A stretch of DNA of 64,000 nt from Thermoanaerobaculia bacterium. GTDB taxonomy: Bacteria > Acidobacteriota > Thermoanaerobaculia > Multivoradales > UBA5704. This document shows positions 6,826-54,767 of the stretch, piece after piece (the stretch's first letter is position 1; each line of letters starts with the position of its first letter). A model generated the notes under the pieces. It was not told the origin of the DNA. It did not search any database and saw only the letters and a program-made list of their open reading frames with translations. A program made the translations under genes and the position numbers. The stretch lies in the NCBI GenBank assembly GCA_044868005.1, contig JBIOVX010000237.1:3852-67851 (forward strand). Reading direction: 5' to 3'.

Positions 6826-7995
6826 ATGATCGCTTCCCAGGCTGAAGCCCCGGAGCCGTTCGAGCCCGACCGCAGGCTCGCCGAATACGAGATGCTGCTC
6901 GAGATCGGCGTCAAGCTCGCCGGCACTCTCGATCTCCAACGGGTGCTGCAACTGGCTCTCGAGCACGCCGAGCAGGTCTGCCGGGCCGAGACCAGCTCGA
7001 TCTGGGAGCTCGACGAAGAGCGGCGGGAGCTCTTCTTCCGCGTCGTGCGCGGACACGCGGCGGGAGCCATCCGCGGTCTGCGGGTGCCGGTGGGCGAGGG
7101 GATCGTCGGCAGCGTCGCCGAGTCCGGCGAGGCCGCGGCGGTCAACGACGTGACCGCCGATCCGCGCTGGCACGGCGATCCCAAGGGAGCTTTCCAGACG
7201 CGGGCGATCCTCGCCGTGCCCCTGCTCGCCCGCGGCGCCGTCATCGGCGTCGTGCAGCTCCTGAACCCGGTGGACCGCGACCACTTCACGGCGGGCGACG
7301 TCTGGCGCATGCGCCAGTTCGCCGCCATCCTCGCGCCGACGCTGCAGAACGCCCGCCTCTACGCGGCGCAGCGCCGGCAGTTCTTCAACATGGTGACGGC
7401 GCTGGCGGAGACGCTGGAGAAGCGCGATCCCTATACCGGCGGCCACGTCCGCCGCGTCGTCGGCTACTCGTTGCTGCTCGGCGCCGAGATGGGGCTCGGC
7501 CGCGAGGACCTGCGCGAGCTGCGCCTCGCCGCCACGCTGCACGACATCGGCAAGATCACGACGCCGGACCGCATCCTCGGCAAGCCCTCGCCCCTCGATC
7601 CCGACGAGGCGGAGATCATGCGCCGGCACGCGGCGGACGGCGCTTCCATCGCCAGCCACCTCGCCAACCCGTGGGTGCTGCACGGCGTGCGCAGCCATCA
7701 CGAAAGGGTGGACGGCAAGGGATATCCGGACGGTCTGAAGGACGCCGACATCCCGCTCGCGCCGCGCATCATCGCCGTGGCGGACACCTACGACGCCATC
7801 ACCACCAGCCGTCCCTACCGCGCCGGCCTGCCGCCGCAGCGCGCCGCCGCCGAGATCTTCGCCGGCGCCGGCAGCCAATTCTGCCCGCAGGTCGTGGCGG
7901 CCTTCCGCAAGCTGTTCGAGGACGGCCGGTTCCGGCTGGAGACTGCCGATGATCTGCTGTTGTCGGGCGAGGTGCAGGTGTTGGGGACGGCGTGA
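6826..7995 (+). CDS. GAF domain / HD-GYP phosphodiesterase
   Basis: ORF 6826..7995 with AGGAGG upstream. N-terminal GAF-like domain and C-terminal HD-GYP signature (ATLHDIGKI, HHERVDGKGYPDGL). Confidence 0.9.
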   Translation: MIASQAEAPEPFEPDRRLAEYEMLLEIGVKLAGTLDLQRVLQLALEHAEQVCRAETSSIWELDEERRELFFRVVRGHAAGAIRGLRVPVGEGIVGSVAESGEAAAVNDVTADPRWHGDPKGAFQTRAILAVPLLARGAVIGVVQLLNPVDRDHFTAGDVWRMRQFAAILAPTLQNARLYAAQRRQFFNMVTALAETLEKRDPYTGGHVRRVVGYSLLLGAEMGLGREDLRELRLAATLHDIGKITTPDRILGKPSPLDPDEAEIMRRHAADGASIASHLANPWVLHGVRSHHERVDGKGYPDGLKDADIPLAPRIIAVADTYDAITTSRPYRAGLPPQRAAAEIFAGAGSQFCPQVVAAFRKLFEDGRFRLETADDLLLSGEVQVLGTA

Positions 7996-8025
7996 GGACT
8001 GTACTCATTGGCGCGCTACCGAAGG

Positions 8026-8679
8026 TTAGCTATTGTCTCTTGATCGATCAAAAATATCCTCAGCGCTATTACTTGCCTTCAACGTCTTTTGCATACTCCT
8101 GCGGACGATGAAGGCTATGACAATTGGGATAACATAACTCCAGGCTAGAACGAAGTATGCAATCTCCAATTGGCCAGAAGCCCAGAGGAAAGTAGATAAG
8201 AGAGCGGTACCAGAGATCTGAAAGCCGTAAAAGAAAACACGGATCGTTCGAGTTAGCTTGATAGCCAAGTGCTCGCGATACCGAGCTTTCGGATCCTTCT
8301 GACGGAGATTGCTAGCAGTGAAATCTAGCAACGCAAGACTCACATCTTGGCCACCATCTGTATTGCCGTTTATGAAATCTGCGATTTCGATTCTTCTTGT
8401 GCGAAACCGTTGTGCCGCGCGGGCATACCAGGCGTCAAGATAAAGGAAGACAAGAGGTATCAGGCTGCTGGCGGATATGAGCCGTACATCACTCTCAGCC
8501 ACTTCACTGACTCCGAGGCCAACCCCGAGCGTAAGTGTCCACAGAGCCACGGAAAATTGCCTGAGGTGATATTGAACTCCTTCAAGGTGCACGATTCTTT
8601 GCTCAAGTAGCGGTAGCTCAAGCTTGATGATCTCTAGCTGTCTATCTGTGAGTTCTGAGAGATGGTCGCCCTTAGTCAT
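8026..8679 (-). CDS. Small four-helix membrane protein, unknown family (island gene 2, candidate effector)
   Basis: ORF 8026..8679 (-) in the lowest-GC part of the window. A ~40-aa N-terminal amphipathic helix (LSELTDRQLEIIKLELPLLEQRIVHLEG) is followed by hydrophobic helices at aa ~42-58, 67-86, 146-167 and 172-192. They are arranged 2+2 around a ~60-aa charged loop. No signal peptide and no catalytic motif. Confidence 0.75.
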   Translation of the reverse strand: MTKGDHLSELTDRQLEIIKLELPLLEQRIVHLEGVQYHLRQFSVALWTLTLGVGLGVSEVAESDVRLISASSLIPLVFLYLDAWYARAAQRFRTRRIEIADFINGNTDGGQDVSLALLDFTASNLRQKDPKARYREHLAIKLTRTIRVFFYGFQISGTALLSTFLWASGQLEIAYFVLAWSYVIPIVIAFIVRRSMQKTLKASNSAEDIFDRSRDNS

Positions 8680-8882
8680 GGATGAGTTTTACTCCCAAGA
8701 TCGGCTATTCCGAAGTGGGCCTCCGCAGGCGTTACGAAGTCCTCGACCCGGTTGCTGAGAGACGCTGCCAAGCCCGAATCACTCACTCCTGGAAACCTTC
8801 GAGAAGAGTTCCGTTTGTGCAGATGAATCACAGCTGCTCCTCTGGTCCAGCCAACTGCCGTGAGGATAATCCTCGCCCGCCA

Positions 8883-11522
8883 TTATCGGGCGCCTTCCGG
8901 CTGGCGCTCAATATCGACCAGGATAGTGTCTAGATCGACGTGATCCGTCGGGCTTTGCCTAAAACGTAGCTCCCAGGTGGCATCATGCTCGCGTTCGTGC
9001 TTTAGGACATCGCGCAACTCCTCGGGAAGGTTTTCGGCGCGTACCTCTCCATAGCGGATGTTTCGAAACGCTCCCGCGAGCTGTCGAATTTTACGATTCG
9101 AAGTGTCATCCTTCAGGCAGAAGAAAGCCTTCAGGACCTGCGCTGAGACCTTCTTGACGTCAGGATGCTGAAGCTGCAATTGCAAGGCGCCCTGGTAGAC
9201 CATTGAGCGCCGCTGAGCATCACCGCCGCCCTCATTAAGGTGTACCGCGTCAAGACTCAGGCGGGATTTGAAGTCCGGTTCCTTGGAATCGAGTAGTTTC
9301 TGCATTTCCTCGGGAGTGCCGGTAGACCGCAATTCGGTCGTCCCGGCGAATAGCCAGATGCAAGGGTCAAGCTTGAAGAGGTGACCTCCCCGCAGATACG
9401 AGCCGTCCTCCAGCACCGTCAGAAAAAGGTCGTAGACCGGCAAGCCTTCGACATGGGAGTTAATCTCGTCAAAAAAGACGACATGAGTTCGGTTGCGCTC
9501 TTGAGCCTGCGCGCTGGCAAGAGCGTCGAACCAGGAATTAATATTTTGCCGGCTAACGAGTTGGGTAATGTTGAAAAAAAGATGAGGCATGCCAAGAGCT
9601 GCCGCGAGCTTCGACACCAGGAAGGACTTGCCCGACCCAGGGAGGGCGATCAGCATGGCGCTGAAGGAATTCGCGCTGGGCTGGTGAAGGTAATCCTTTA
9701 GCGCCGAGAGCAGACGTGCTATCTCGCGGCGCCGCGAGTCGATAACCTCGATGTACCCGTCTAACTCGTCCATGGCCCGCCACAGCTCAAGGCTATAGCG
9801 CCGCGAGCTTGCATCTCTGGCTATGATGCCAGTCGCCTGTCGCGACGTCTCCCAAAAGTCGCGCTCCTGGGTCCAGCTCAGCGGAAGTACCTGAATGCTG
9901 GGACGGGTTCGCGATGGGAGCACGGTCGCAGTGGCCGTCCTTCGGTAGCTCCCGAAGGAAGTGTCATAGGGGAACTCCCTGTTCTCAAGGCTTCCCGGCT
10001 CTTCACCGAAGGTCTTAAGCGTTTGAATGTTGCCCTGCACGACGTCATAGGCTGCCTTTAGGGCGATCTCGAGCATCTCGGTTCTCCCCGGAGCATCGCC
10101 AACGGCAGCGCCCTTGATCGCATCGCTAACCCCAGCATCCGAAAGGATGATCTGGGAGACAAGCGCGGAGAAGAACATGCTGGCCCGCCCTGAGAGTTCC
10201 TCGCTCACTTCGTCCAAGATGGTCTTGGGCTGGTAGTAGCCAGTCCGTTCCTCTCCATTACCTTCGACGGCGAGGAGGCTTAAACCCTTGGGCATGGCGA
10301 CGACTAGTCGGGGTTGTCTCTCAAGCCCGGGATACCGATCTGAATGTGCGTCCCCGAGGAAGTCTTCGAGTCGGTCCAAGCTTTCCGCGGTGGGCTGCTC
10401 CTCACCGACGAACCACTTGTATATAGGGTGGTCGCTATCTTGGGCGCCTGGAGCAATCCCCTCGCGCTCCATTTGGGCGATGGCCATGGGCGGGAGGAAG
10501 AGCAGGCGCAGCATCCCGTACATCTCTTTTTTTGCCAGTGTATCTAGATAGGTCGGATGGAACTGCTTGCTTGAGATGAACCACTGAGTCTCCCTGTTTA
10601 TGAGGCCCACTGTATGCAACGCTTCGAGCAGAGTAAGTGTGGTTGTGCCCTTGCCGAGATCCTTGACCACGACATAGCGGAAGGGTTTTTGGCTCCCAGT
10701 GGAGTCATTCGTCGCAGGAGGGGCATGGAGTAGGTCCTCGGCGACCGTCGTGAGCGACTCTCGGATGCTCGGGAAGTGCTCTAAGCCGCCTTCGTAATCG
10801 AGGCGTAGCTTCAAGGCCTCGACATCGCGTAGGAGATGCTGCTGCCAAGTAGCGAAGGCGAGCCGTTCCGGATCGAACGGGATCTCAGGGATCTGACGCA
10901 ATAGCTCTTCGAGCCTCGTTAATTCGTAGTCGCGCCCTCCCTGGACTGGTTGGTAACGAAGCTCGAAGTCCACCCGGCGGTCGAGGACCAGCCCGCCCGG
11001 CGTCTCAGCCTGCAGGTTGTAGAGTCGATAGACGCGTGTGGTACCAACCTCCTTCCAGGGGCTGCTGGCCGCTGCCTCGGAATAGGCAGGGGCCAGGTTC
11101 TTCAGATACAAGCCATCGAGCTGTTGATAGTGAATGTGTTGAGGCTTTACACGTCTAAGAGTGAAAGGGTTGATTCCGTCTAAGTAGCGCGGATGGAACA
11201 TTTTGTAGAGTTTGGGCTCGTCATCCTCGGACCAAATACCGATCCCAAGAATCGAGAATGGAGGTGCGTTGACTCGCTCCTGAGGTGGGATCCAGATCTC
11301 TCCTCCGGACTCAGTGGGCTCCCGGAAACGATTCATCCAATAGAGAAAGCGCGCCACCCGTCCGGCGCCGCAGAAGGTCATGACGCGAGAATTGACGTTA
11401 CCCAAGGCTCGCAGGTGTGCCTTGCCCTCCATCGTGCTGAAGCTTGATCTATGCTTGGCTAGCACCCAGTTCTCGTCCACGACCCAGTCGCCGAGCACGA
11501 GGATCTCAATCGGTTTGGACAT
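8883..11522 (-). CDS. PfkB/ribokinase-like domain fused to AAA+ ATPase, unknown family (island gene 1)
   Basis: ORF 8883..11570 (-). Start trimmed to ATG 11522 (MSKPIEILVLGDW) with AAGGAG 6 nt upstream. The N-terminal ~460 aa carry PfkB-like motifs (ILVLGDWVVDENW, FCGAGRVARFL, VVVKDLGKGTTTL). The AAA+ core has Walker A LPGSGKS (nt 9624..9644), Walker B VVFFDE (nt 9465..9482), LFAGTTE and DFKSRLS. Confidence 0.8.
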   Translation of the reverse strand: MSKPIEILVLGDWVVDENWVLAKHRSSFSTMEGKAHLRALGNVNSRVMTFCGAGRVARFLYWMNRFREPTESGGEIWIPPQERVNAPPFSILGIGIWSEDDEPKLYKMFHPRYLDGINPFTLRRVKPQHIHYQQLDGLYLKNLAPAYSEAAASSPWKEVGTTRVYRLYNLQAETPGGLVLDRRVDFELRYQPVQGGRDYELTRLEELLRQIPEIPFDPERLAFATWQQHLLRDVEALKLRLDYEGGLEHFPSIRESLTTVAEDLLHAPPATNDSTGSQKPFRYVVVKDLGKGTTTLTLLEALHTVGLINRETQWFISSKQFHPTYLDTLAKKEMYGMLRLLFLPPMAIAQMEREGIAPGAQDSDHPIYKWFVGEEQPTAESLDRLEDFLGDAHSDRYPGLERQPRLVVAMPKGLSLLAVEGNGEERTGYYQPKTILDEVSEELSGRASMFFSALVSQIILSDAGVSDAIKGAAVGDAPGRTEMLEIALKAAYDVVQGNIQTLKTFGEEPGSLENREFPYDTSFGSYRRTATATVLPSRTRPSIQVLPLSWTQERDFWETSRQATGIIARDASSRRYSLELWRAMDELDGYIEVIDSRRREIARLLSALKDYLHQPSANSFSAMLIALPGSGKSFLVSKLAAALGMPHLFFNITQLVSRQNINSWFDALASAQAQERNRTHVVFFDEINSHVEGLPVYDLFLTVLEDGSYLRGGHLFKLDPCIWLFAGTTELRSTGTPEEMQKLLDSKEPDFKSRLSLDAVHLNEGGGDAQRRSMVYQGALQLQLQHPDVKKVSAQVLKAFFCLKDDTSNRKIRQLAGAFRNIRYGEVRAENLPEELRDVLKHEREHDATWELRFRQSPTDHVDLDTILVDIERQPEGAR

Positions 11523-11639
11523 GATGGACTCCTTGGGAAAGGCGGATGTCGTGGCGGAGACTGCCACCATACGACTTAGAGTAGCCTCGGGTCACTTGTG
11601 CCACCCCTACCTTTCGACAATCTTTGAAATATCGACGAT

Positions 11640-11645
11640 ATTATA
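11640..11645 (-). promoter_or_regulatory. Possible -10 box (TATAAT) for island gene 1
   Basis: Reverse-strand TATAAT at 11645..11640, ~118 nt upstream of ATG 11522. AGACTG lies 17 nt further upstream as a weak -35. Pattern only. Confidence 0.25.
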
Positions 11646-11807
11646 GCGGAGATTGGAAGCCGCAGTCTGGGGCACAAACAGGGGAACCTGAGGTCCTCTC
11701 CCGTACTCGCGGCTCTGCCGAAACACCCGGCGAGTCCATGACTTGCTCCTGTACAGGATTGCCTACTGGCCTGCGCTGGTATCATCTCCCGAAGGACATG
11801 CCACCTC

Positions 11808-14789: not shown

Positions 14790-15026
14790 CGACTCCTCCT
14801 TTGATAGTCAAACTTCGATGAGCGGATAAGGTACCGCTGGCGGGCGGTGGATGCAAGGCCTCAACCGCCCGAGGCGATAAGAGAGCATGCTGCCAAGATG
14901 AGATGTGGTTGACGGCCCGGATCTTGCAACCTTTTTGAATCGGTTATCGCTAGCCCCGAAAATCTTTTGCCTATACTGGGTTGACTGATCGGGGTTTGCT
15001 CGAGTGACCGACTAGGAGTTTCCATC

Positions 15027-15401
15027 ATGTCCAACACCACCACCGTAGAGATCCACCCCAACGTCCTATCGACCGCCGCCGTCATCGGCGACAGCGTCGT
15101 CAACCGTATGGGGGAGAAATTCGGCAAGATCGAGGAGCTCATGCTCGACTTGGAGAAGGGGCGCGTCGCCTATGCCGTCCTCTCCTTCCGCGGCGTCCCG
15201 GAGATGAGCGAGAAGCTGTTCGCTATTCCGTTTGAGGCCCTGAAGCTCGACGCCAGCCGTGAGCACTTCACGCTCGACGTCGACCAGAACAAGCTGAAGA
15301 ACGCCCCCGGCTTCGACAAGAATCACCCCCCGCAGGCTTCGGACCGCACCTGGGGCGCCGAGGTCTACAAGTTCTACGGTATCAAGCCCTACTGGCAGTA
15401 A
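15027..15401 (+). CDS. PRC-barrel domain protein
   Basis: ORF 15027..15401 with AGGAG upstream. VIGDSVVNRMGEKFGKIEELMLDLEKGRVAYAVLSFRG is typical of PRC-barrel proteins. Confidence 0.85.
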   Translation: MSNTTTVEIHPNVLSTAAVIGDSVVNRMGEKFGKIEELMLDLEKGRVAYAVLSFRGVPEMSEKLFAIPFEALKLDASREHFTLDVDQNKLKNAPGFDKNHPPQASDRTWGAEVYKFYGIKPYWQ

Positions 15402-15426
15402 GATCGGGGCAGTATCGAGCAGGACG

Positions 15427-15458
15427 GAGGGCGGCCGTACGGCCGCCCTCTTTGTTTT
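15427..15458 (+). terminator. Rho-independent terminator
   Basis: GAGGGCGGCC-gtac-GGCCGCCCTC (15427..15450) followed by TTTGTTTT (15451..15458), 26 nt after the PRC-barrel stop. Confidence 0.75.
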
Positions 15459-15493
15459 GGGCGAGGCCGCGGCGACCGGACGATCGGGACAAA

Positions 15494-16012
15494 TTACATG
15501 TAGGAAATGCCGATCTTGTCCCGCCTGGCGTTATCCCGTCCCTTTGCGGCCACTCCTTTACCTGCTCTCCCCTGGGGCAGCAGAGCCCAAGGGCCCAAGG
15601 CATCCAATGCCTCTTGCTCGCTCAACCTTCTCGCCTGCTCCATAACTCCCGACGGTACCCACTTGGGAAATGGGACTTCCCGGGTAGCATGTCGACCGGA
15701 AGCCGTGTGCTCTTCATGCACCTGCGCTATCTGAACGGCCGGAAATCGCTCCGCCAGGCGCACTAAGGCCGGCCATAACCGCCGGTGTACGAAAGTGATT
15801 TTTCCATTCACGAGACGGCAAACGAGCACATCGTCAGAATCCGTTACTGCCTGAAAGACAGCGAAGATTTGATGGCTTTTGGGATGAGACCACCAGCTTC
15901 CTTTGATGGGCTCGCCGGCAATCGCCTCTGCAAGTCGGAGAACAGGACCTTTAGCGGACGCAAGGACTACACCATGCTTTTGAACAAAGGCGATCGCTTC
16001 GTCGGCGGTCAT
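15494..16012 (-). CDS. Hypothetical protein
   Basis: ORF 15494..16012 (-). It lies 14 nt downstream of the CheB/CheR-HK gene on the same strand. The sequence is non-repetitive and globular-looking (MTADEAIAFVQKHGVVLASAKGPVLRLAEAIAGEPIKGSWWSHPKSH). G+C is somewhat lower than in neighbours. Family not recognised. Confidence 0.6.
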   Translation of the reverse strand: MTADEAIAFVQKHGVVLASAKGPVLRLAEAIAGEPIKGSWWSHPKSHQIFAVFQAVTDSDDVLVCRLVNGKITFVHRRLWPALVRLAERFPAVQIAQVHEEHTASGRHATREVPFPKWVPSGVMEQARRLSEQEALDALGPWALLPQGRAGKGVAAKGRDNARRDKIGISYM

Positions 16013-16025
16013 GGTCCGGTCATGG

Positions 16026-19000
16026 TCAATGCTTGCTTGACCGGGCGAGCAGCGCGTAGATGACCGGAAGGTCGACCGGCTTGGTCAGGTGATGGTCGAA
16101 TCCTGCCTCCCGCGAGAGGCGCTGGTCCTCCTCCTGTCCATAGCCGGTCACGGCCACGAGCAGGGCCCTTGCGGTCCGGCGCCGTTGGCGCAGCCGGCTG
16201 GCGACCTGGTAACCATCCAACCCGGGCAAACCGATGTCGAGCAGGACGACCTCGGGATGGAACGAGCCGGCCTTTTCCAGCGCCGCCGGTCCATCGTGAG
16301 CGGTCTCTACCTCGTGCCCTTTCAAGCGCAGGAGGAGGGCGAGGCTCTCGGCCGAATCCACGTTGTCGTCCACCACCAGGACGCGGCGCGGCGGGGCCGC
16401 GGCAGGGGAGAGCACCGGGCCTACGACGATCCTGTCCCCTGCATGGCCGCGGCGCTCCGGTGCCGTGCTCGCAGGCGCCGAAACGGGCAGGCGCACGACG
16501 AGCTCGCTGCCGTGTCCCAGCCCCGCGCTATGGGCTTCGACGCTGCCGCCGTGCAGCTCGACGAGGCGCTGCACCACCGTCAGGCCGATCCCCAACCCTC
16601 CCCGCGCCCGATCGGAGGAGCGGTCCGCCTGCACGAACAGGTCAAAGACGCGCGGCAGCGTTTCCGGAGCGATGCCGATGCCGTCGTCGCGCACTCGCAC
16701 GACGACCTCGCCGGGGGGCTCGGGCCCGCCGGCCGCCAGCTCGGCCGTCACCCAGAGATGGCCGCCTCTGGGGGTGAACTTGGAGGCGTTGTTCAGGAGG
16801 TTGCCGAAGACCTGTTCCAGCCGGACGGGGTCCGCGTCGAGGTAGACCGGCTCGCGCGGCAGCGACATCGACAGCTCCTGGCCGCGGGCTTCGATGAGAT
16901 GCCGGGTCAGCTCCACCGCCTGCTCGAGGACGACCGCCAGCTCCAACCGCTCTCTGCGCAGGCTGATCTGGCCCCGGTTGATGCGGGACACCTCGAGCAG
17001 GTCTTCGATCAACCGCGTCATGTTCTGAATCTGCCGGGTCATCATCTTCCGCGCCTGCTCGACCGCGGCGCCGTCGGCCCCCTCGGCCTGCAGCACGTGC
17101 GCGGCATTGAGCAGGGGCGCCAAGGGGTTGCGCAGCTCGTGGGCCAGCAGGGCCAGGAACTCGTTCTTGCCGCGGTCGGCCGCGGCCAGCTCCTCGACAC
17201 GCTGGTGTAGAACCTTTTCCAGTTGCTTGAGCTTGTCCACGTCGACGAGCAGGATCACCACGCCCTCGATCTTGTCCTCCAGGGTCCGGTACGGCCGGAC
17301 GCGCAGCGAATACCAGCGCCCCTGGCTGTCCTGGACCTCGCGTTCCCGGGGGCTCGCCGTGGCGATCACCTCCGCCAGGAAGGGCTCCAGATCGGGAACG
17401 CTGAGCTTGAGCTTGATGTCGCCGATCGGCCGGCCGACGTCGGTCGGGATCAGGCTGAAGATCTCTCCCGCCATCGGCGTGAAGCGCCGCACGCGCAGGT
17501 CCTGCCCGAGCATGATGATGGCCATCTCGACGCTGCCGAGGAGGTTGATCAGATCGTTGCTGAGCTGATTCAGCTCCAGGTTGCGGTTCTGCAGCTCGTC
17601 GTTGACCGTGGCCAGCTCTTCGTTGCTCGACTGGATCTCCTCCTTGGAGGTTTCCAGCTCTTCGTTGATGCTCTGCAGCTCCTCGTTGGCCGACTGCACC
17701 TCCTCATTGGCCGACTGCAGCTCTTCATTGGCGGCCTCCTGCTGCTCGATCACCGATTGCAGGTATTCGCCCGTGGCGGCCAGCTCCCGCGCCAAACGGG
17801 CGTTCTCCCGTTCGGCGGCCTCCTCCTCCGCGGCAGCCTTGGTCCGTGGTTTTGCGGCCTTGCCCCTGTCCCTCTTCCCTCGCGGCAGAGAAGCCGGTGC
17901 TGGAACGGGCTCTTCGAACAGGACCAGGAAGCCGCCTTCCCCTGCCGAGCTTCCCTTGACGGGAACCACCTCCAGGTCGACCTCCCGGGTGACGCCGTCG
18001 GCCTCGACCCGCACCCCCTCCTCGCGCACCGGGACGTTGTCCTTCCTGGCCTTGTTGATCGCGGCCCGCAGGGTGACGAGCAACCCTTCCCGCGTCATCC
18101 TGAGCAGGTTCAGGCTGGCCTTGCCCGGCGCCGGCGCCAGATAGGGCCCGGTGTCGCCGCGGAACTGCAGGATCTCCAGCTCGGCGTTGACCAGCACGCC
18201 GGGCGGGGCGTATCTTGCCATGAGGATGCGGTCGGCCTCTGTCCGCACGTCGGATCCGGCTGGCTGCAGGCGGCCCGGGCCGTGGCCGGGCTCTGCTCGG
18301 CCCTGATAGCGGCCGGCAGGCTGGCCGAGGACCGTCCGGTGCGTGCCTGGCTTCTTGGCGTAGATCTTGTGCTTGGCGTCTGCGGCCTCGAACAGGGCGC
18401 GGTAGGAGCCGATCATCTCCGAGCTCCCCAGCAAGAGAAAGCCGGCCGGCTTCAAGGCATAGTGCAGGCGCTCCACGAGCCTCTGTTGCAGCGCCGGCTC
18501 CAGGTAGATGAGCAGGTTGCGGCAACTGATGAGGTCGATCTGGGAGAAGGGCGGGTCGGTCAGCACGTTGTGCCGGGCGAACACGCACATGTCGCGGATC
18601 GGCTTGCTGATGCGGTAGCTGCCGTCCACCTCCGCGAAGAACCGCCGCAGGCGCTCCGGCGAGACGTCGTGCGTGATGTTCTGCGAGTACACGCCCGCGC
18701 GGGCCTTGTCGATGCACTCTACGTTCAGGTCGGTGGCGAAGACCTGGACCGGGAGCTGGCTGCCCCTGGCCGCGGCGAGCTCGGCGATGGCGATGGAGTA
18801 AGCCTCCTCGCCGGTCGAGCACCCCGGCACCCAGACGCGCAGCGGCTCTTGTCCGGAGCGGTTCTTCAACAGCTTGGGCAAGACCTTCGCCTTGAGTGCT
18901 TCGAAGGTCTCCGGGTTGCGGAAAAACCTCGTCACCCTGATGAGGGTGTCCTGGTAGAGGGCCTCCACCTCTCCGGGGTTTTTCCGTAGGAAGCGCGCGT

Positions 19001-34444: not shown

Positions 34445-35824
34445 TTATTTACGGATTCGAGGGCGAGCTTTTCCGGCTCCTCCGTGCGATCTCTTCCCGG
34501 CTCCTCTTGCGCGGCCTGATTCGGCCTCTCTTGTGTGAGGTGCCGGAGACTTGAACTGCTCCAGCTCTGCGAGGGCTGATTCGGCGTAGGTCACAATCTC
34601 GTTTAGGGCGCTGCGTCGAACGGTGTCACGGACGCTCGCGTCCAACACTAGGTCGGCTGCTCTGTAAGCCACCAGTTGCTTGAGGATGCGGAACGTTGGT
34701 TCCTTAATCGGCAGCCCGATATCGCCGTCGATGCCAAACTGGCTGCCAAGATCGACCAGCCGGACGATCTCCTCGATGAAGCGCTCAATCGGCGGTCTGG
34801 GTCGGGGACGAAGCGAGCGAGGCCATGGCCATATCGTATCCGGAAAGACAATCGGCCTATAACTTACTCGTATCGTGGCCCTCTGTTCTTCTGGGTTGAT
34901 GTTCACAACCTCTACACGCTTATATGGCCGGTGTGATACGTTCGAAGAGTCGCCATACTCAAACACACTGCCCTCAACAAAGTCATTTGCGTCCTTGCTG
35001 CCTAGCAGGTAGGAGTGATTGTCCCAAAAGTAGTGCATCAGGATCGCGGCGCGTGGGATGGCCGCATCCCATCCGGCTGTTGTTCGGAACTCGATCAAGG
35101 TGCCGCCGGGCAGCTCTGCCGCGAGGAGTCCGGGCAGGTCGCGCCGGTGTAGCGGTCGCAGCTCAACGACCTCCTCGCTGAACCCTTGCGAAGTTGAGCT
35201 CCATACGCGCGACTCGTCCAACCAACCAAGCCGGCGCATATTGGCGGCGTTCATGCCAGGTCCGATCTCGGTGTAGTTGCTGTCCGGTGCGATATGGCAA
35301 GTATTCCAGGTACTCATGATGTCCCAGGGGTCTTGGTAGTCCTCCGTTGAGCCCTCGCGTCGGGAGTGGTCTAGGCCGTACCCGTGCGCCATTTCTTGTC
35401 CTAGCGCGGTCGGTCGAAACGATCCCGGGTCGCAAACAACAGCCCGACCCCCCAATATGCCGAACAGATCGGTTAGGACGTTCATGCAGACCACGACCCC
35501 GTAGAAGGCGTTCAAGTCAACCCCCTGCCCTGCCGCAGTGCGCTTGGCGAGGTCAACCAGCGCCCCGCGGTCGACCTGGCCCGTGGATGGCGTCGCATTG
35601 CCGACGTATGCGCTTAGGCTTTGGGGCAGCGTGAACCAGCCGAAGACCTGAGAGCCCGTCAAGTCTAGGTTGCCGTGCGACATGTGATCGAAGAACTCGA
35701 CCATATTTCTAGTTCCCGCACCCGCCGGCGTGAATAGCTTCTCGAAGAAGCTGCGTGGTCGCGGCTCCGCGTTCTGATCGTTCCACTTGCAGAGAAGCAC
35801 CGCCCAAGGCGTTTTCTTGGCCAT
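34445..35824 (-). CDS. Cytoplasmic metzincin/M6-like peptidase-fold protein with variant zinc motif (QEMAHGYGLDH)
   Basis: ORF 34445..35824 (-) in a low-GC islet, with GGAGG upstream. The N-terminus AVLLCKWNDQ...FFEKLF...MVEFFDHMSHGNLDLTGSQVFGWFTLPQS resembles the M6 (InhA-like) metalloprotease domain. nt 35366..35398 encode QEMAHGYGLDH where HExxHxxGxxH is expected. No signal peptide. The C-terminus is helical with an Arg/Lys-rich tail. Confidence 0.6.
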   Translation of the reverse strand: MAKKTPWAVLLCKWNDQNAEPRPRSFFEKLFTPAGAGTRNMVEFFDHMSHGNLDLTGSQVFGWFTLPQSLSAYVGNATPSTGQVDRGALVDLAKRTAAGQGVDLNAFYGVVVCMNVLTDLFGILGGRAVVCDPGSFRPTALGQEMAHGYGLDHSRREGSTEDYQDPWDIMSTWNTCHIAPDSNYTEIGPGMNAANMRRLGWLDESRVWSSTSQGFSEEVVELRPLHRRDLPGLLAAELPGGTLIEFRTTAGWDAAIPRAAILMHYFWDNHSYLLGSKDANDFVEGSVFEYGDSSNVSHRPYKRVEVVNINPEEQRATIRVSYRPIVFPDTIWPWPRSLRPRPRPPIERFIEEIVRLVDLGSQFGIDGDIGLPIKEPTFRILKQLVAYRAADLVLDASVRDTVRRSALNEIVTYAESALAELEQFKSPAPHTREAESGRARGAGKRSHGGAGKARPRIRK

Positions 35825-51115: not shown

Positions 51116-51693
51116 GAATGGATCTTCTCGTGCCGCTCCAGCATGGCGACGAACTGCTGGATGCGCCTGGCGCGCGTCTCGGGCTTCTTGGCGTTGTGAA
51201 TGCGGAAGACGATCGCGTAGCGGTTGACGCTGTTCAGCGTGGCGAAGAAGGCCTTGGCTTTGGGGTTGCGGTCGAGCGCCGCCTGCAGGTCGTCCGGCAC
51301 CGAGGCGCGGCTCTGCGACTCGTAGGCCTTCTCCCATTGTCCGTTCTCTTTGGCGCGTTCGATCGCCGCGAGGCCGGACGGTTTCATCTCGCCGCTCGCG
51401 ATGAGCGCTTCCGCCTTCTCGCGGTTGATCTTCGACCAGATGCTCCGCGGGCCGCGCGGCGTGAACTTCTGCAGCCAGAAGGACTCGTCATGCGCCTGCT
51501 TCTGCCCGTCGATCCAGCCGTAGCAGAGCGCGGCTTCGAGGGCCTCGGGGTAGGTTACGGATTGGACATGGGAGTCCTTCTTTGCCAGCTTGAGCCAGAC
51601 GCCCGGCGACTTCGCGTGGTTCTTGGCGAGCCAGGCGGACCAGGCCTTTTTGTCTTTGAACGGCAGCACCGGCAGGTCGGTATTCTGCGCCAT
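51112..51693 (-). CDS. YdeI/OmpD-associated family protein
   Basis: Within ORF 51112..51792 (-). ATG 51693 (MAQNTDLPVLPFKDKKAWSAWLAKNHAKSPGVWLKLAKK). CYGWIDGQKQ and the C-terminal FFATLNSVNRYAIVFRIHNAKKPETRARRI are typical of this family. Confidence 0.8.
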   Translation of the reverse strand: MAQNTDLPVLPFKDKKAWSAWLAKNHAKSPGVWLKLAKKDSHVQSVTYPEALEAALCYGWIDGQKQAHDESFWLQKFTPRGPRSIWSKINREKAEALIASGEMKPSGLAAIERAKENGQWEKAYESQSRASVPDDLQAALDRNPKAKAFFATLNSVNRYAIVFRIHNAKKPETRARRIQQFVAMLERHEKIHS

Positions 51694-51929
51694 CCCTATC
51701 CTCCCCGAAGAAGCGCAGTCTATCCTCCGCCGCGACCCGCTTGACGCGGAAGCCGCGACATTCTTCAAATAGCGATAAGAGTTGATAAACAAAAGATGTG
51801 CGGATTAGATCGAAATAAAACAGAATCTGAACCGCTAGGGCGATTGAATCTTTGAAAAGAAAGATCTTGACAGGCCGCCGCCGCGGGAGCATGCTGTTCT
51901 CAGCCAATCTTTGCCAAGGGAGGCTCACG

Positions 51930-54767
51930 ATGCGCAAGCTCGCCCCCGCCGCTGTCCTCTGTTTTTCACTTCTTATTCCATCCAGCGGTGCCGCCGTGCC
52001 GCTCGTGCATGACAACGGCGACGGCACGATGACGGATCAGGGAACCGGGTTGACCTGGGTGGCCGAGCGCGGCGCTCCGGTGCTGCCGCGGGCCGAGGCC
52101 CTGCGGCTCATCACGGCGATGAATGCCGGCGAGGCCGAGAACTTCGGCCGCACGGATTGGCGCCTGCCCAGCGACCGCGAGCTGCGGCGGATCTCCGGAC
52201 TGCTCAGCCTGCCTCGCCAGCTCCACGGCGCCGGGCGTTCCGGCCCGGGCCTCCCGAGAACCGGCGTCAATCAGGCCGTGCTCTGGCCGGTCTCCGGCTC
52301 GTCGGTGGTGGCGGACCTTCCGGCGGCGGCCATCGTGGCCACCAACAGCGTGCTGATCAGGAAGAACTCGCACATCACCGGCGACGTGGTGGTCAACGAC
52401 GCCAGCCCGGGACCGACGCTCTCCTCCGGCTTCGAGCTCGCCATCCACCAGAACACCGTCGTGCAGGGCAACCTCAAGGCGGACAGCACCGCTCTCGACA
52501 ACCACGCCAGCATCTCCGGCGAGGTCGCCTATAACAATCTGTCGAACAGCGGCGCCACCACCGGCTCGCTCTCCACGCCGCTGCCGCTGCCGGTGTTCTC
52601 CATGCTGCCGGCGTTCCACACGGCCGTGCCACGGCCGGGAGCGGCGGACGTCACCGTCGGCGCCTCCCAGACCGTGACGTTGCCGGCCGGAGACTATGGA
52701 CTGATTCAGGTGGCGGGAACCGGCACGGTCGTCTTCACCGGCGGCATCTACAACGTCGGCGCCATCCAGACCGGTCCCGGCTCCTGCGCCGTGCCCTGCC
52801 GCACTTTGAGCTTCTCGGCGCCGGCGGACGTGCGGGTGGCTGAGCGGCTCGACCTCGGCAGCGACGCGTTCGTCGGTCCCGCGGCCGGCTCCGGCGTCAC
52901 GGCGGCGCAGATCATCCTCTACATCGGCGGTATCGACGGCGCGACGGGTGCTCTCGGATCGCTGCCGCGGGCGGTGAATTTCGGCCGCGGCAGCACCGTC
53001 CAGGCCAACGTCTACGCGCCCAACGGCACGATTTCGCTGGGGAGAGATTCGAGCGTCACCGGCGCTTTCCTGGCCCGCGACGTCCTCATCGAGCAGGGCT
53101 CCACCATCACGGCCGCCAGCTATTTCGCCAACCGGCCGCCGGTGGCCCATCCGCAGACGGTGATCACCAACGGCGCGGCGGCCGTCGTCATCACCTTGAC
53201 CGGCAGCGATCCCGAGAACGGCGACCTGACGTTTTCGATCGTCAGCGGACCCACCCAGGGCAGCCTGGGAACGGTGACGCCGAATCCGCCCACGACGCCG
53301 CCGGCCGAGCCTGGCCGCCCGCCCGGCCCGCCTTCGGTCAACAGCGCCACCGTCACCTACACGCCGGCCACGGCGGGGAACCTGGAGGACTCGTTCGTCT
53401 TCCAGGTGCAGGACCCGCTGGGCGCCATCGGCCAGGCCACCGTGCGCATCAATCCCGAAACGCCGGACGGTCCGCCGGCTCCGCCGCCCACCACCGTGGT
53501 GGCGAACGACGTCTCAGACACCACCTTCCAGGACCGGCCGACGACGCTGAATCTCACCGGCGGCGCGCCGGCGGGCGTGGCGCTGACGTTCTCGATCGTC
53601 GCCGGCAGCGGACCGGCGCACGGCACTCTCGGACCGTTGACGCAAGGCACGGAGGTGCCGCAGCGCACGGCCACGGTGGTCTACACGCCGGGCAGCGGCT
53701 TCACCGGCTCGGACGGTTTCCAGTTCGAGGCCTGCGGCGTCATCGCGAGCGCCACGGTGTGCGACACGGCGAGCGTGGCGGTGGAGGTGCTGCCGACGCC
53801 GACGGAGCCAGGCGAGCTGGCGGAGGACCAGACGGTCACCACGCCGCAGGACCGGGCGGTGCAGATCACGCTCCTGGGAACGGTCCCCAGCGGCTCGGAG
53901 CCGCTCTCCGTCACCACGTTCGCCGCGTTCCTCGACGGCGCGGAGATCGCCGGCAACGTCGCCGACGCCGACACCAACGGGGCCGGCGACAACCACAACG
54001 ACCTGCCGGGAGCGAGCCCGATCTTCATCAGCGCGGGCGTCGGCCAGACCGGCGGCGCGGGGTCGAACGGCACGAAGCGCATCCACATCGAGTGGGACCT
54101 CTCGGGTCTCCAGGGGCTCGGCACCATCAACAGCGCTAGCGTGACCCTCAACACCCACCGCGGCACCAGCGACTCGCTCGACACGTTCTTCTACGCGGTG
54201 GCCGGCGGCGACGGCCTGTTGACGGACTCGGATTTCGAAGCTTCCGGAGAGCCGATCGCCGGCGCGGTGATGCCGGTGCCGTCGCTCTCGGTGCAGCCGG
54301 TGGGCGCCGACGGCACCTACAGCTTCGACGTCATCGGGCAGTTGCGCGCGGCGATCGCCGCCGGAGCGCCGTTCTTCTCGATCCAGGGGCGGGTGAACGA
54401 GACCACGGCGGGGCCGGCCCGCGGCCTCGAGGTGCGCTCCACTGCGGACGACAACCTGGCGAGCTTCCTCGAGCCGCAGCTCGAGATCACCACGCCGGGC
54501 GTCACGGCGGCGCCGGACTTCGAGATCCTGAGCCTGCCGGCGAACGGCACCTTGCGCAACTCGCTGGGCGACCCGATCACGGCCGTGCCGGCGGCGCTGC
54601 CCGACAACCGCGTGAGCTATACGCCGATCGCCAGCTTCGTCGGCACGGTGAGCTTCACCTTCCAGGCGACGTTCAGCACCTTCACCGACACCGGTGTGGT
54701 GACGATCAACGTGATCTCGGCGAGCTGCGCGACCAACCCCGACGCCTGCGACGACGGGCGCGACTGA
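51930..54767 (+). CDS. Large secreted beta-helix / Ig-like-repeat protein with N-terminal DUF1566-like domain
   Basis: Within ORF 51852..54767. ATG 51930 (MRKLAPAAVLCFSLLIPSSGAA, GGGAGG upstream). DNGDGTMTDQGTGLTWV...TDWRLPSDRELRRI resembles DUF1566 (Lcl C-terminal type). A long Gly/Thr/Val beta-helix-like region follows. Then at least three Ig/cadherin-like repeats (VVITLTGSDPENGDLTFSIVSGPTQGSLG; TLNLTGGAPAGVALTFSIVAGSGPAHGTLG). Confidence 0.75.
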   Translation: MRKLAPAAVLCFSLLIPSSGAAVPLVHDNGDGTMTDQGTGLTWVAERGAPVLPRAEALRLITAMNAGEAENFGRTDWRLPSDRELRRISGLLSLPRQLHGAGRSGPGLPRTGVNQAVLWPVSGSSVVADLPAAAIVATNSVLIRKNSHITGDVVVNDASPGPTLSSGFELAIHQNTVVQGNLKADSTALDNHASISGEVAYNNLSNSGATTGSLSTPLPLPVFSMLPAFHTAVPRPGAADVTVGASQTVTLPAGDYGLIQVAGTGTVVFTGGIYNVGAIQTGPGSCAVPCRTLSFSAPADVRVAERLDLGSDAFVGPAAGSGVTAAQIILYIGGIDGATGALGSLPRAVNFGRGSTVQANVYAPNGTISLGRDSSVTGAFLARDVLIEQGSTITAASYFANRPPVAHPQTVITNGAAAVVITLTGSDPENGDLTFSIVSGPTQGSLGTVTPNPPTTPPAEPGRPPGPPSVNSATVTYTPATAGNLEDSFVFQVQDPLGAIGQATVRINPETPDGPPAPPPTTVVANDVSDTTFQDRPTTLNLTGGAPAGVALTFSIVAGSGPAHGTLGPLTQGTEVPQRTATVVYTPGSGFTGSDGFQFEACGVIASATVCDTASVAVEVLPTPTEPGELAEDQTVTTPQDRAVQITLLGTVPSGSEPLSVTTFAAFLDGAEIAGNVADADTNGAGDNHNDLPGASPIFISAGVGQTGGAGSNGTKRIHIEWDLSGLQGLGTINSASVTLNTHRGTSDSLDTFFYAVAGGDGLLTDSDFEASGEPIAGAVMPVPSLSVQPVGADGTYSFDVIGQLRAAIAAGAPFFSIQGRVNETTAGPARGLEVRSTADDNLASFLEPQLEITTPGVTAAPDFEILSLPANGTLRNSLGDPITAVPAALPDNRVSYTPIASFVGTVSFTFQATFSTFTDTGVVTINVISASCATNPDACDDGRD

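Follow-up and report, generated by a model that had tools for sequence, protein, structure and literature searches.

Recent work has shown that bacterial immunity commonly relies on TIR signalling coupled to small membrane effectors. As described by Yirmiya et al. (bioRxiv 10.64898/2025.12.03.692087), type V Thoeris uses DUF2270 proteins, for which the name ThsF was introduced, as its effectors; in this system, ThsB produces 3'cADPR upon infection and added 3'cADPR is toxic to the cells bearing the system. In the same work, ThsF is described with three transmembrane (TM) helices and is predicted by AlphaFold3 to form a channel-like ring of seven protomers, the interfaces of which carry basic pockets. 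Here, a gene best explained as a rare four-TM (4-TM) branch of the superfamily holding the PADLOC family PDC-M50A and, more remotely, DUF2270/ThsF is described from a stretch of 64,000 nucleotides of a Thermoanaerobaculia bacterium (assembly GCA_044868005.1, contig JBIOVX010000237.1, positions 3,852 to 67,851), referred to below as the window. This gene, named gene 2 (protein P0001), occupies 8026..8679 of the window on the minus strand and shares a foreign island with a single companion, gene 1. Its product is probably a signal-gated, oligomerising and membrane-disrupting defence effector of the PDC-M50A/ThsF type, in a TIR-less 4-TM variant, a reading favoured here with moderate confidence.

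Comparable designs are found in other defence systems. The SLATT/S-4TM proteins of the cyclic oligonucleotide-based antiphage signalling system (CBASS) and of SMODS systems, as well as ThsH of type VII Thoeris, would be functional analogues of such an effector, having a comparable helix-TM-TM-helix module; the SLATT/S-4TM effectors are small, oligomerise and are gated by nucleotide second messengers. KwaA of Kiwa is also a 4-TM protein, with approximately 200 amino acids (aa), encoded beside a soluble partner; it functions as a sensor rather than an effector.

Like ThsF, P0001 is a small multi-TM protein having no catalytic domain and basic cytoplasmic surfaces, and its 2+2 TM layout and length are similar to those of core DUF2270 proteins. 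It differs from ThsF by the lack of a match to the DUF2270 model PF10028, by belonging to a branch not significantly similar to DUF2270 and by the absence of an adjoining ThsB; TIR-like partners occur only at some homologs of gene 2. PDC-M50A and gene 2 both encode small proteins without an enzymatic domain, distributed patchily in defence islands and on plasmids, and they possess a homologous N-terminal cytoplasmic helix, TM hairpin and 'LDAxY...R.FR' juxtamembrane helix (hhalign 95%, E 3e-8). Meanwhile, PDC-M50A has ~135 aa and three TM segments (a hairpin and one C-terminal TM), compared to the 217 aa, 60-aa basic loop and additional TM3-TM4 hairpin of P0001; the match of P0001 to the PDC-M50A hidden Markov model (HMM) is weak (20.9 bits), and the TIR neighbour of PDC-M50A, PDC-M50B, has no counterpart beside gene 2. 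Regarding the SLATT/S-4TM effectors, neither a sequence-profile relation nor an adjoining SMODS, CD-NTase/cyclase or SLOG gene was detected and, regarding KwaA, there is neither a match in the PADLOC scan (E <= 1) nor a KwaB/DUF4868 neighbour. The branch is novel in its architecture (4 TM, 60-aa basic loop), in the want of a family model that describes it well and in having neighbours other than TIR, while the effector class itself is known and recently validated.

In this placement, gene 2 would extend the effector superfamily to a rare 4-TM branch that is poorly captured by Pfam, NCBIfam and PADLOC. About half of the related genes, gene 2 among them, have no adjoining TIR, and the trigger of such orphan effectors, whether signals in trans, non-TIR partners like the adjoining ATPase or nothing, would reveal the modularity of immune outputs and help to annotate the defence islands of soil bacteria with high GC.

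Architecture and Sequence Constraint of Gene 2

The reading frame runs from ATG to stop and encodes 217 aa, as the initial annotation had it, and it lies at the GC minimum of the window, also as claimed there, with 0.48 in the 500-nt stretch 8001-8500 compared to a window mean of 0.672. The 12 close homologs found in 5.8 billion proteins, with 39-70% identity, have invariant motifs in common with P0001, and the comparison with the closest one (71% identity) gives a nonsynonymous divergence (dN) of 0.20 and a synonymous divergence (dS) of 1.74, with a dN/dS of ~0.11. Because of these shared motifs and this low ratio, gene 2 is considered a real gene under purifying selection.

The protein is a 4-TM inner-membrane protein of N-in/C-in orientation, as read from its translation and the alignment of its homologs. 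Hydropathy peaks are located at aa 42-60, 65-85, 148-166 (weaker, with a Kyte-Doolittle value of 1.24) and 173-193, giving a 2+2 arrangement, and the two hairpins are separated by a central loop at aa 87-146 with 12 K/R and 7 D/E and followed by a polar C-terminal tail. According to the positive-inside rule, N-terminus, central loop and tail all face the cytoplasm. The AlphaFold2 monomer model, obtained with the alignment of the 12 homologs as input, has a mean predicted local distance difference test (pLDDT) score of 73 and a predicted template modelling (pTM) score of 0.59, and shows four long helices (12-54, 65-104, 130-167 and 174-215), each running from the membrane out into the cytoplasm, with low pLDDT at aa 108-126. 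Hydropathy, loop composition and modelled helices agree on the 2+2 topology with a charged loop of ~60 aa and a polar tail that had been proposed initially.

The N-terminal helix at aa 12-41 (8557..8646, minus strand) continues into TM1 in the model and carries the conserved residues E21, R28, H31, E33, Q36 and R40, and hhalign aligns it to the N-terminal helix of PDC-M50A. The initial annotation had described this region as amphipathic and heptad-like. A modest heptad pattern is indeed present, the best register having hydrophobic residues at 7/10 a/d positions, but the amphipathic character was not sustained, as aa 8-40 have a helical hydrophobic moment of 0.16, compared to 0.18 +/- 0.09 in shuffles, 55% of which reach 0.16.

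The TM1-TM2 hairpin follows at aa 42-86 (8422..8556, minus strand), with W47, G56, P75 and F78, and includes most of the PDC-M50A match at aa 41-94. It is closed at the membrane-cytoplasm boundary by a D82-A-W-Y motif, and its positions are nearly invariant in the alignments of both 34 and 140 sequences. The region aa 87-146 (8242..8421, minus strand) comprises the basic juxtamembrane helix RAAQRFRTRR, a variable loop, a conserved LLD/FPvxD element containing D119 and the ARYRE..KLTRTxR segment; together with its boundary, it contains the invariant residues R93, R95, D119, R135, K141, R144 and R147, and it is proposed, on the analogy of ThsF, as a putative ligand-binding or gating region. The TM3-TM4 hairpin at aa 147-193 (8101..8241, minus strand) bears a conserved polar residue in TM3, the Q154 of a YGFQ motif; as seen by alignment and hhalign, only the 4-TM branch and DUF2270 have this half, which is absent from PDC-M50A. 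The last segment, aa 194-217 and the stop codon (8026..8100, minus strand), forms the polar cytoplasmic tail, which is poorly conserved among the homologs.

Relationship to PDC-M50A and Possible Link to DUF2270/ThsF

The libraries recognise P0001 poorly. It has no match in Pfam at E <= 1 and none in PHROG, and NCBIfam gives one match far under its cut-off (E 0.071, 12.8 bits compared to 90). The sole library match is PADLOC PDC-M50A (hmmscan E 8.1e-5, 20.9 bits, aa 41-94), found at the same region in every close homolog. An exhaustive profile search for the superfamily retrieved 186 representatives at E <= 1e-3, and 140 of them were scanned against the models: PDC-M50A was matched by 95/140 (best E 3.5e-17) and Pfam DUF2270 by 22/140 (best E 3.7e-6). 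Within these 140 sequences R95 is invariant, with E21, W47, F78 and I99 nearly so, while the 4-TM branch has G56, F78, R95 and D119 invariant and R40, P75, D82 and Q154 nearly invariant.

As seen by profile-profile comparison, the 4-TM family aligns with PDC-M50A over the N-terminal 92 columns only (hhalign Prob 95%, E 3.3e-8), which makes this N-terminal module homologous. The branch of P0001 is very close to a sister 4-TM branch (99.96%, E 7e-39), and this sister aligns in turn with core DUF2270 over 188 columns, a span that takes in all four TM helices (70.5%, E 4e-5); the 4-TM family taken as a whole reaches core DUF2270 with a Prob of 19% (E 1e-3). P0001 itself has no match to PF10028 at the 25-bit cut-off, nor has any other protein of its genome. 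Close homologs of gene 2 are very rare: ~185,000 species genomes contain one, and the JGI metagenomes four. Regarding a phage or plasmid origin, no relatives were found in IMG/VR, INPHARED or PLSDB, and a profile search of the PDB sequences for the family found nothing.

The connection with TIR signalling comes from PDC-M50A, whose defined partner, PDC-M50B, is a ThsB-like TIR protein (best E 1.8e-64; Pfam ThsB_TIR E 3e-27). A TIR gene on the same strand adjoins PDC-M50A in 6/14 genome loci, corresponding to 6/11 genera, and in 3/3 inspected plasmids (Klebsiella, Priestia and Vibrio), with gaps of 2-17 nt. Other genes around the PDC-M50A loci encode type I restriction-modification, Mrr, PDC-S05/S23 and RhuM proteins and transposases. 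Pairs of TIR and PDC-M50A genes are present on 122 PLSDB plasmids, of which 81 are conjugative and 76 come from Klebsiella or Escherichia. The pair on the Klebsiella plasmid NZ_AP022022.1 (L123, 60636-61815), annotated merely as 'hypothetical' and 'TIR domain-containing', is located among genes for plasmid maintenance and DNA metabolism, namely parM, umuD and those for a partitioning/stability protein, a DNA methylase and DNA polymerase III theta.

Genes Adjoining the Homologs of Gene 2

The genes next to the homologs are variable. A DUF4062 (TIR-like) protein is encoded upstream of the homolog in L003-5, with a gap of 81 nt, and a TIR/NDT-like protein downstream in L008 (PADLOC TIR effector, E 4.6e-9). 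In L009, the upstream gene encodes a DUF4365 protein resembling a restriction endonuclease (REase), which matches PADLOC Aga_REase, the REase associated with prokaryotic Argonaute (E 3e-20). The C-terminus of an AAA_14/DUF4143 ATPase lies 18 nt from the superfamily member of L098, and no obvious partner was found at L007 or L001/L045. In L047 (500-2800), a two-gene low-GC island (0.47-0.57) lies in metagenomic DNA of ~0.70 GC and encodes a 345-aa protein without a family match, having a 'VRSSLVH' Rx4H motif and possibly being HEPN, followed by a 60%-identical homolog of gene 2, which carries an additional Cys-rich, zinc-ribbon-like C-terminal tail of ~110 aa. No shared domain was found among these variable partners.

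Two assignments were suggested by motifs. The protein P0179, encoded upstream in L096, was taken for a tandem paralog, which was withdrawn because all four HMMs score it at ~0 bits. The designation of P0177 as HEPN is a tentative lead, based on the Rx4H motif only, with no support from Pfam, PADLOC or PDB. Beside the 41%-identical homolog of L001 (9869-16732, also L045), the genes encode an AAA_15/AAA_21 ABC ATPase, a 956-aa NACHT-FGE-sulfatase, bAvd and a reverse transcriptase, a run that is defence-island-like and in which bAvd and the reverse transcriptase form a diversity-generating retroelement.

In the genome that carries gene 2, there are 35 matches to TIR_2, of which 31 are above the Pfam cut-off; they belong mostly to large multidomain proteins, many in open reading frames of 400-1,500 aa. 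Examples from this unusually TIR-rich genome are G000:C161:5115-5462, C277:697-1080 and C119:13285-13683 (L104-L111).

The Island and Gene 1

Genes 1 and 2 are the only genes of a foreign island of 3,810 bp (7997..11806), which starts right behind the stop codon of a host HD-GYP gene. The empty site is preserved in a genome of the same genus, G409, where homology ends at window position 7996 and resumes at 11807 and the flanking genes are 19 nt apart; the site is also empty in four other congeners (G405, G411, G412 and G415). The GC content at third codon positions (GC3) is 0.49 for gene 2 and 0.68 for gene 1, compared to 0.92-0.94 for the host genes, and both genes are foreign. The values of the two genes are ~5 standard errors apart, suggesting different histories and a composite island.

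Gene 1 (P0002; 8883..11570, minus strand) encodes 895 aa, or 879 aa from the second Met, with an N-terminal PfkB-like region and one AAA+ module (Pfam AAA at aa 639-707, core at aa ~620-740). It is also rare: the collection contains 12 such proteins, and 11 homologs lie on other contigs. The spacer between both genes has 203 nt (8680..8882, minus strand) and contains no intrinsic terminator; promoter and terminator scans of it are no better than those of shuffles, the single promoter-like site (8911..8882) not exceeding chance expectation, and no Rfam family was found in it. A GGGAG motif precedes the ATG of gene 2 by 12 nt.

The initial annotation had linked both genes and proposed the conservation of this linkage as a check, which failed: at 9 loci with relatives of gene 1 (five true homologs with 41-66% identity and four distant ones sharing only the AAA+ module), no HMM match to the gene 2 family, PDC-M50A or TIR was found, and gene 1 is missing from the about nine contexts of gene 2 homologs. 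A conserved operon is ruled out by these loci, and the pairing is a one-off. A functional link between gene 2 and the PfkB/AAA+ protein, which would be the striking feature of the locus, is consequently not supported by conservation. The closest homolog of gene 1 (66% identity; L010 684-3875) is located 1.1 kb downstream of a gene for a 1,063-aa LRR-Roc-COR-TIR protein; therefore, relatives of gene 1 can also sit in conflict-type settings.

Possible Mode of Action and Alternative Functions

The effector function is favoured because the N-terminal module of P0001 is homologous to the TIR-linked PDC-M50A, because its family appears to reach DUF2270/ThsF remotely and because two contexts of close homologs (L003-5 and L008) hold TIR-like partners, while a role in defence is suggested by the patchy and rare distribution and by the low-GC islands seen here and in L047. 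In the proposed mechanism, the protomers would oligomerise in the inner membrane, and the juxtamembrane belt of invariant Arg/Lys (R40, R87-R95, R135-R147) together with D82 and D119 would constitute the site for an anionic activating signal. Activation would then perturb or open the membrane, with Q154 and G56 perhaps lining the TM bundle, and this disruption would abort the phage infection, as the effector would kill the cell or arrest its growth. Pore formation, for which the protein had initially been named a candidate, is likewise inferred. The trigger could be a signal in trans, gene 1 or nothing, gene 2 then being an orphan; the first of these is conceivable, though linkage lends it no support.

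Several observations weigh against this effector function. P0001 matches no Pfam or NCBIfam family, and its likeness to PDC-M50A is limited to aa ~12-101; its own branch compared directly with DUF2270 is not significant (hhalign Prob 3.5%), and the Foldseek search of its model against PDB gives nothing below E 0.87, the matches being generic helical bundles and one designed nanopore. No TIR was found on the contig of the window or in the island by the genome TIR_2 and window searches, and 8/14 PDC-M50A loci have no nearby TIR. PADLOC lists PDC-M50 itself as an untested candidate, and the PF10028 scan of three TIR-linked plasmid PDC-M50A proteins gave no match, so PDC-M50A is not equated here with the published ThsF, an equivalence that is unproven. 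Lastly, core DUF2270 occurs as a single copy in 52/301 genomes of the phylum (17%; L071-L095; E about 1e-60) and also in the Deinococcus radiodurans and Haloferax volcanii controls, a distribution that looks housekeeping-type; the Pfam family is therefore wider than ThsF and not purely defensive.

This last point leads to the view of gene 2 as a DUF2270-type housekeeping or stress membrane protein without a role in defence, carried by chance on transferred DNA, which agrees with the wide single-copy occurrence of core DUF2270 and with the length and 2+2 layout common to both. It is nevertheless quite improbable, as the gene 2 family is extremely rare and patchy, resides in foreign islands with conflict-type neighbours and is nearer to the TIR-linked PDC-M50A (95%) than to core DUF2270 (3.5-70%). 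Even less can be said for a SLATT or S-4TM effector of CBASS-like (SMODS) nucleotide signalling, to which the initial annotation had likened the protein. P0001 resembles these effectors in size and in its helix-TM-TM-helix module, and type VII Thoeris likewise uses SLATT as effector, but 0/140 superfamily members match any Pfam SLATT or S_4TM model at E <= 0.01, and the neighbourhood of gene 2 holds no SMODS, CD-NTase or SLOG gene. Pfam SLATT_1 worked as a positive control, detecting a SLATT protein elsewhere in the same genome (G000:C180, E 1.3e-22). Membership in these families is effectively refuted at the family level by the profile searches, and this function is hardly tenable; of the initial proposal, the small TM defence effector is supported by the homology to PDC-M50A and by the putative remote homology to DUF2270/ThsF, and the SLATT/S-4TM likeness is not. 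The SLATT_1 domain of the control (7347-7712, L112) is genuine and lies within a 677-aa open frame, which is large for SLATT and may correspond to a fused effector.

Other explanations assign the partner a larger role. Genes 1 and 2 could form a dedicated system, where the PfkB-like/AAA+ protein senses the infection, or binds or makes a sugar-nucleotide ligand, activates the membrane effector and so replaces the TIR of Thoeris-like systems. As the sole content of the 3.8-kb insertion, both genes have the same orientation with no terminator between them, L047 is likewise a two-gene low-GC island with the partner upstream and the TM gene downstream, and AAA_14/DUF4143 ATPases neighbour two other superfamily members. 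The lack of co-occurrence at the 9 and about nine loci, the difference in GC3 and the promoter-like site in the spacer, itself at chance level, speak against it, so that such a system is a tentative and rather unlikely alternative. A more specific version, in which the 4-TM branch consists of ThsF-like effectors uncoupled from TIR and rewired, here gated by a dead PfkB-type (sugar- or nucleoside-binding)/AAA+ sensor or ligand relay, is doubtful; if true, a Thoeris-like output module would be driven by a non-TIR input, while gene 2 as merely another effector copy would be an ordinary finding. Alternatively, gene 2 could encode the membrane sensor or anchor of an upstream soluble effector (REase-like DUF4365, HEPN-like, TIR-like or ATPase), which it would recruit or release on sensing that the infection perturbs the envelope, as KwaA in Kiwa. 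The TM protein is the constant element across the partners, and upstream ones have effector-type heads (DUF4365/Aga_REase, DUF4062/TIR-like and the Rx4H protein). However, the partners have no common docking domain, no PADLOC KwaA match exists, the HEPN label of P0177 is a motif without a family match and, in the related and experimentally studied type V Thoeris, the roles of effector and sensor fall to the membrane protein and the TIR, respectively, which makes this arrangement improbable compared to the effector function favoured here.

The Insertion Site

The ends of the island present no target-site duplication, tRNA, terminal repeats, integrase or mobility gene. At the same junction, between the HD-GYP and FHA-cyclase genes, two closer relatives carry other cargos of host-like GC: G408 encodes a 639-aa GT39-like membrane protein (L066 1394-3378), and G404 has LmbE-, cupin- and GT2-like genes (L067 1242-4165). 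With three cargos in three congeners, this is therefore a variable junction and not a dedicated defence hotspot, a recurrent insertion point without a visible recombination signature. Outside the island, the window has three other stretches with GC < 0.58, at 14801-16100, 34501-35100 and 51501-52000.

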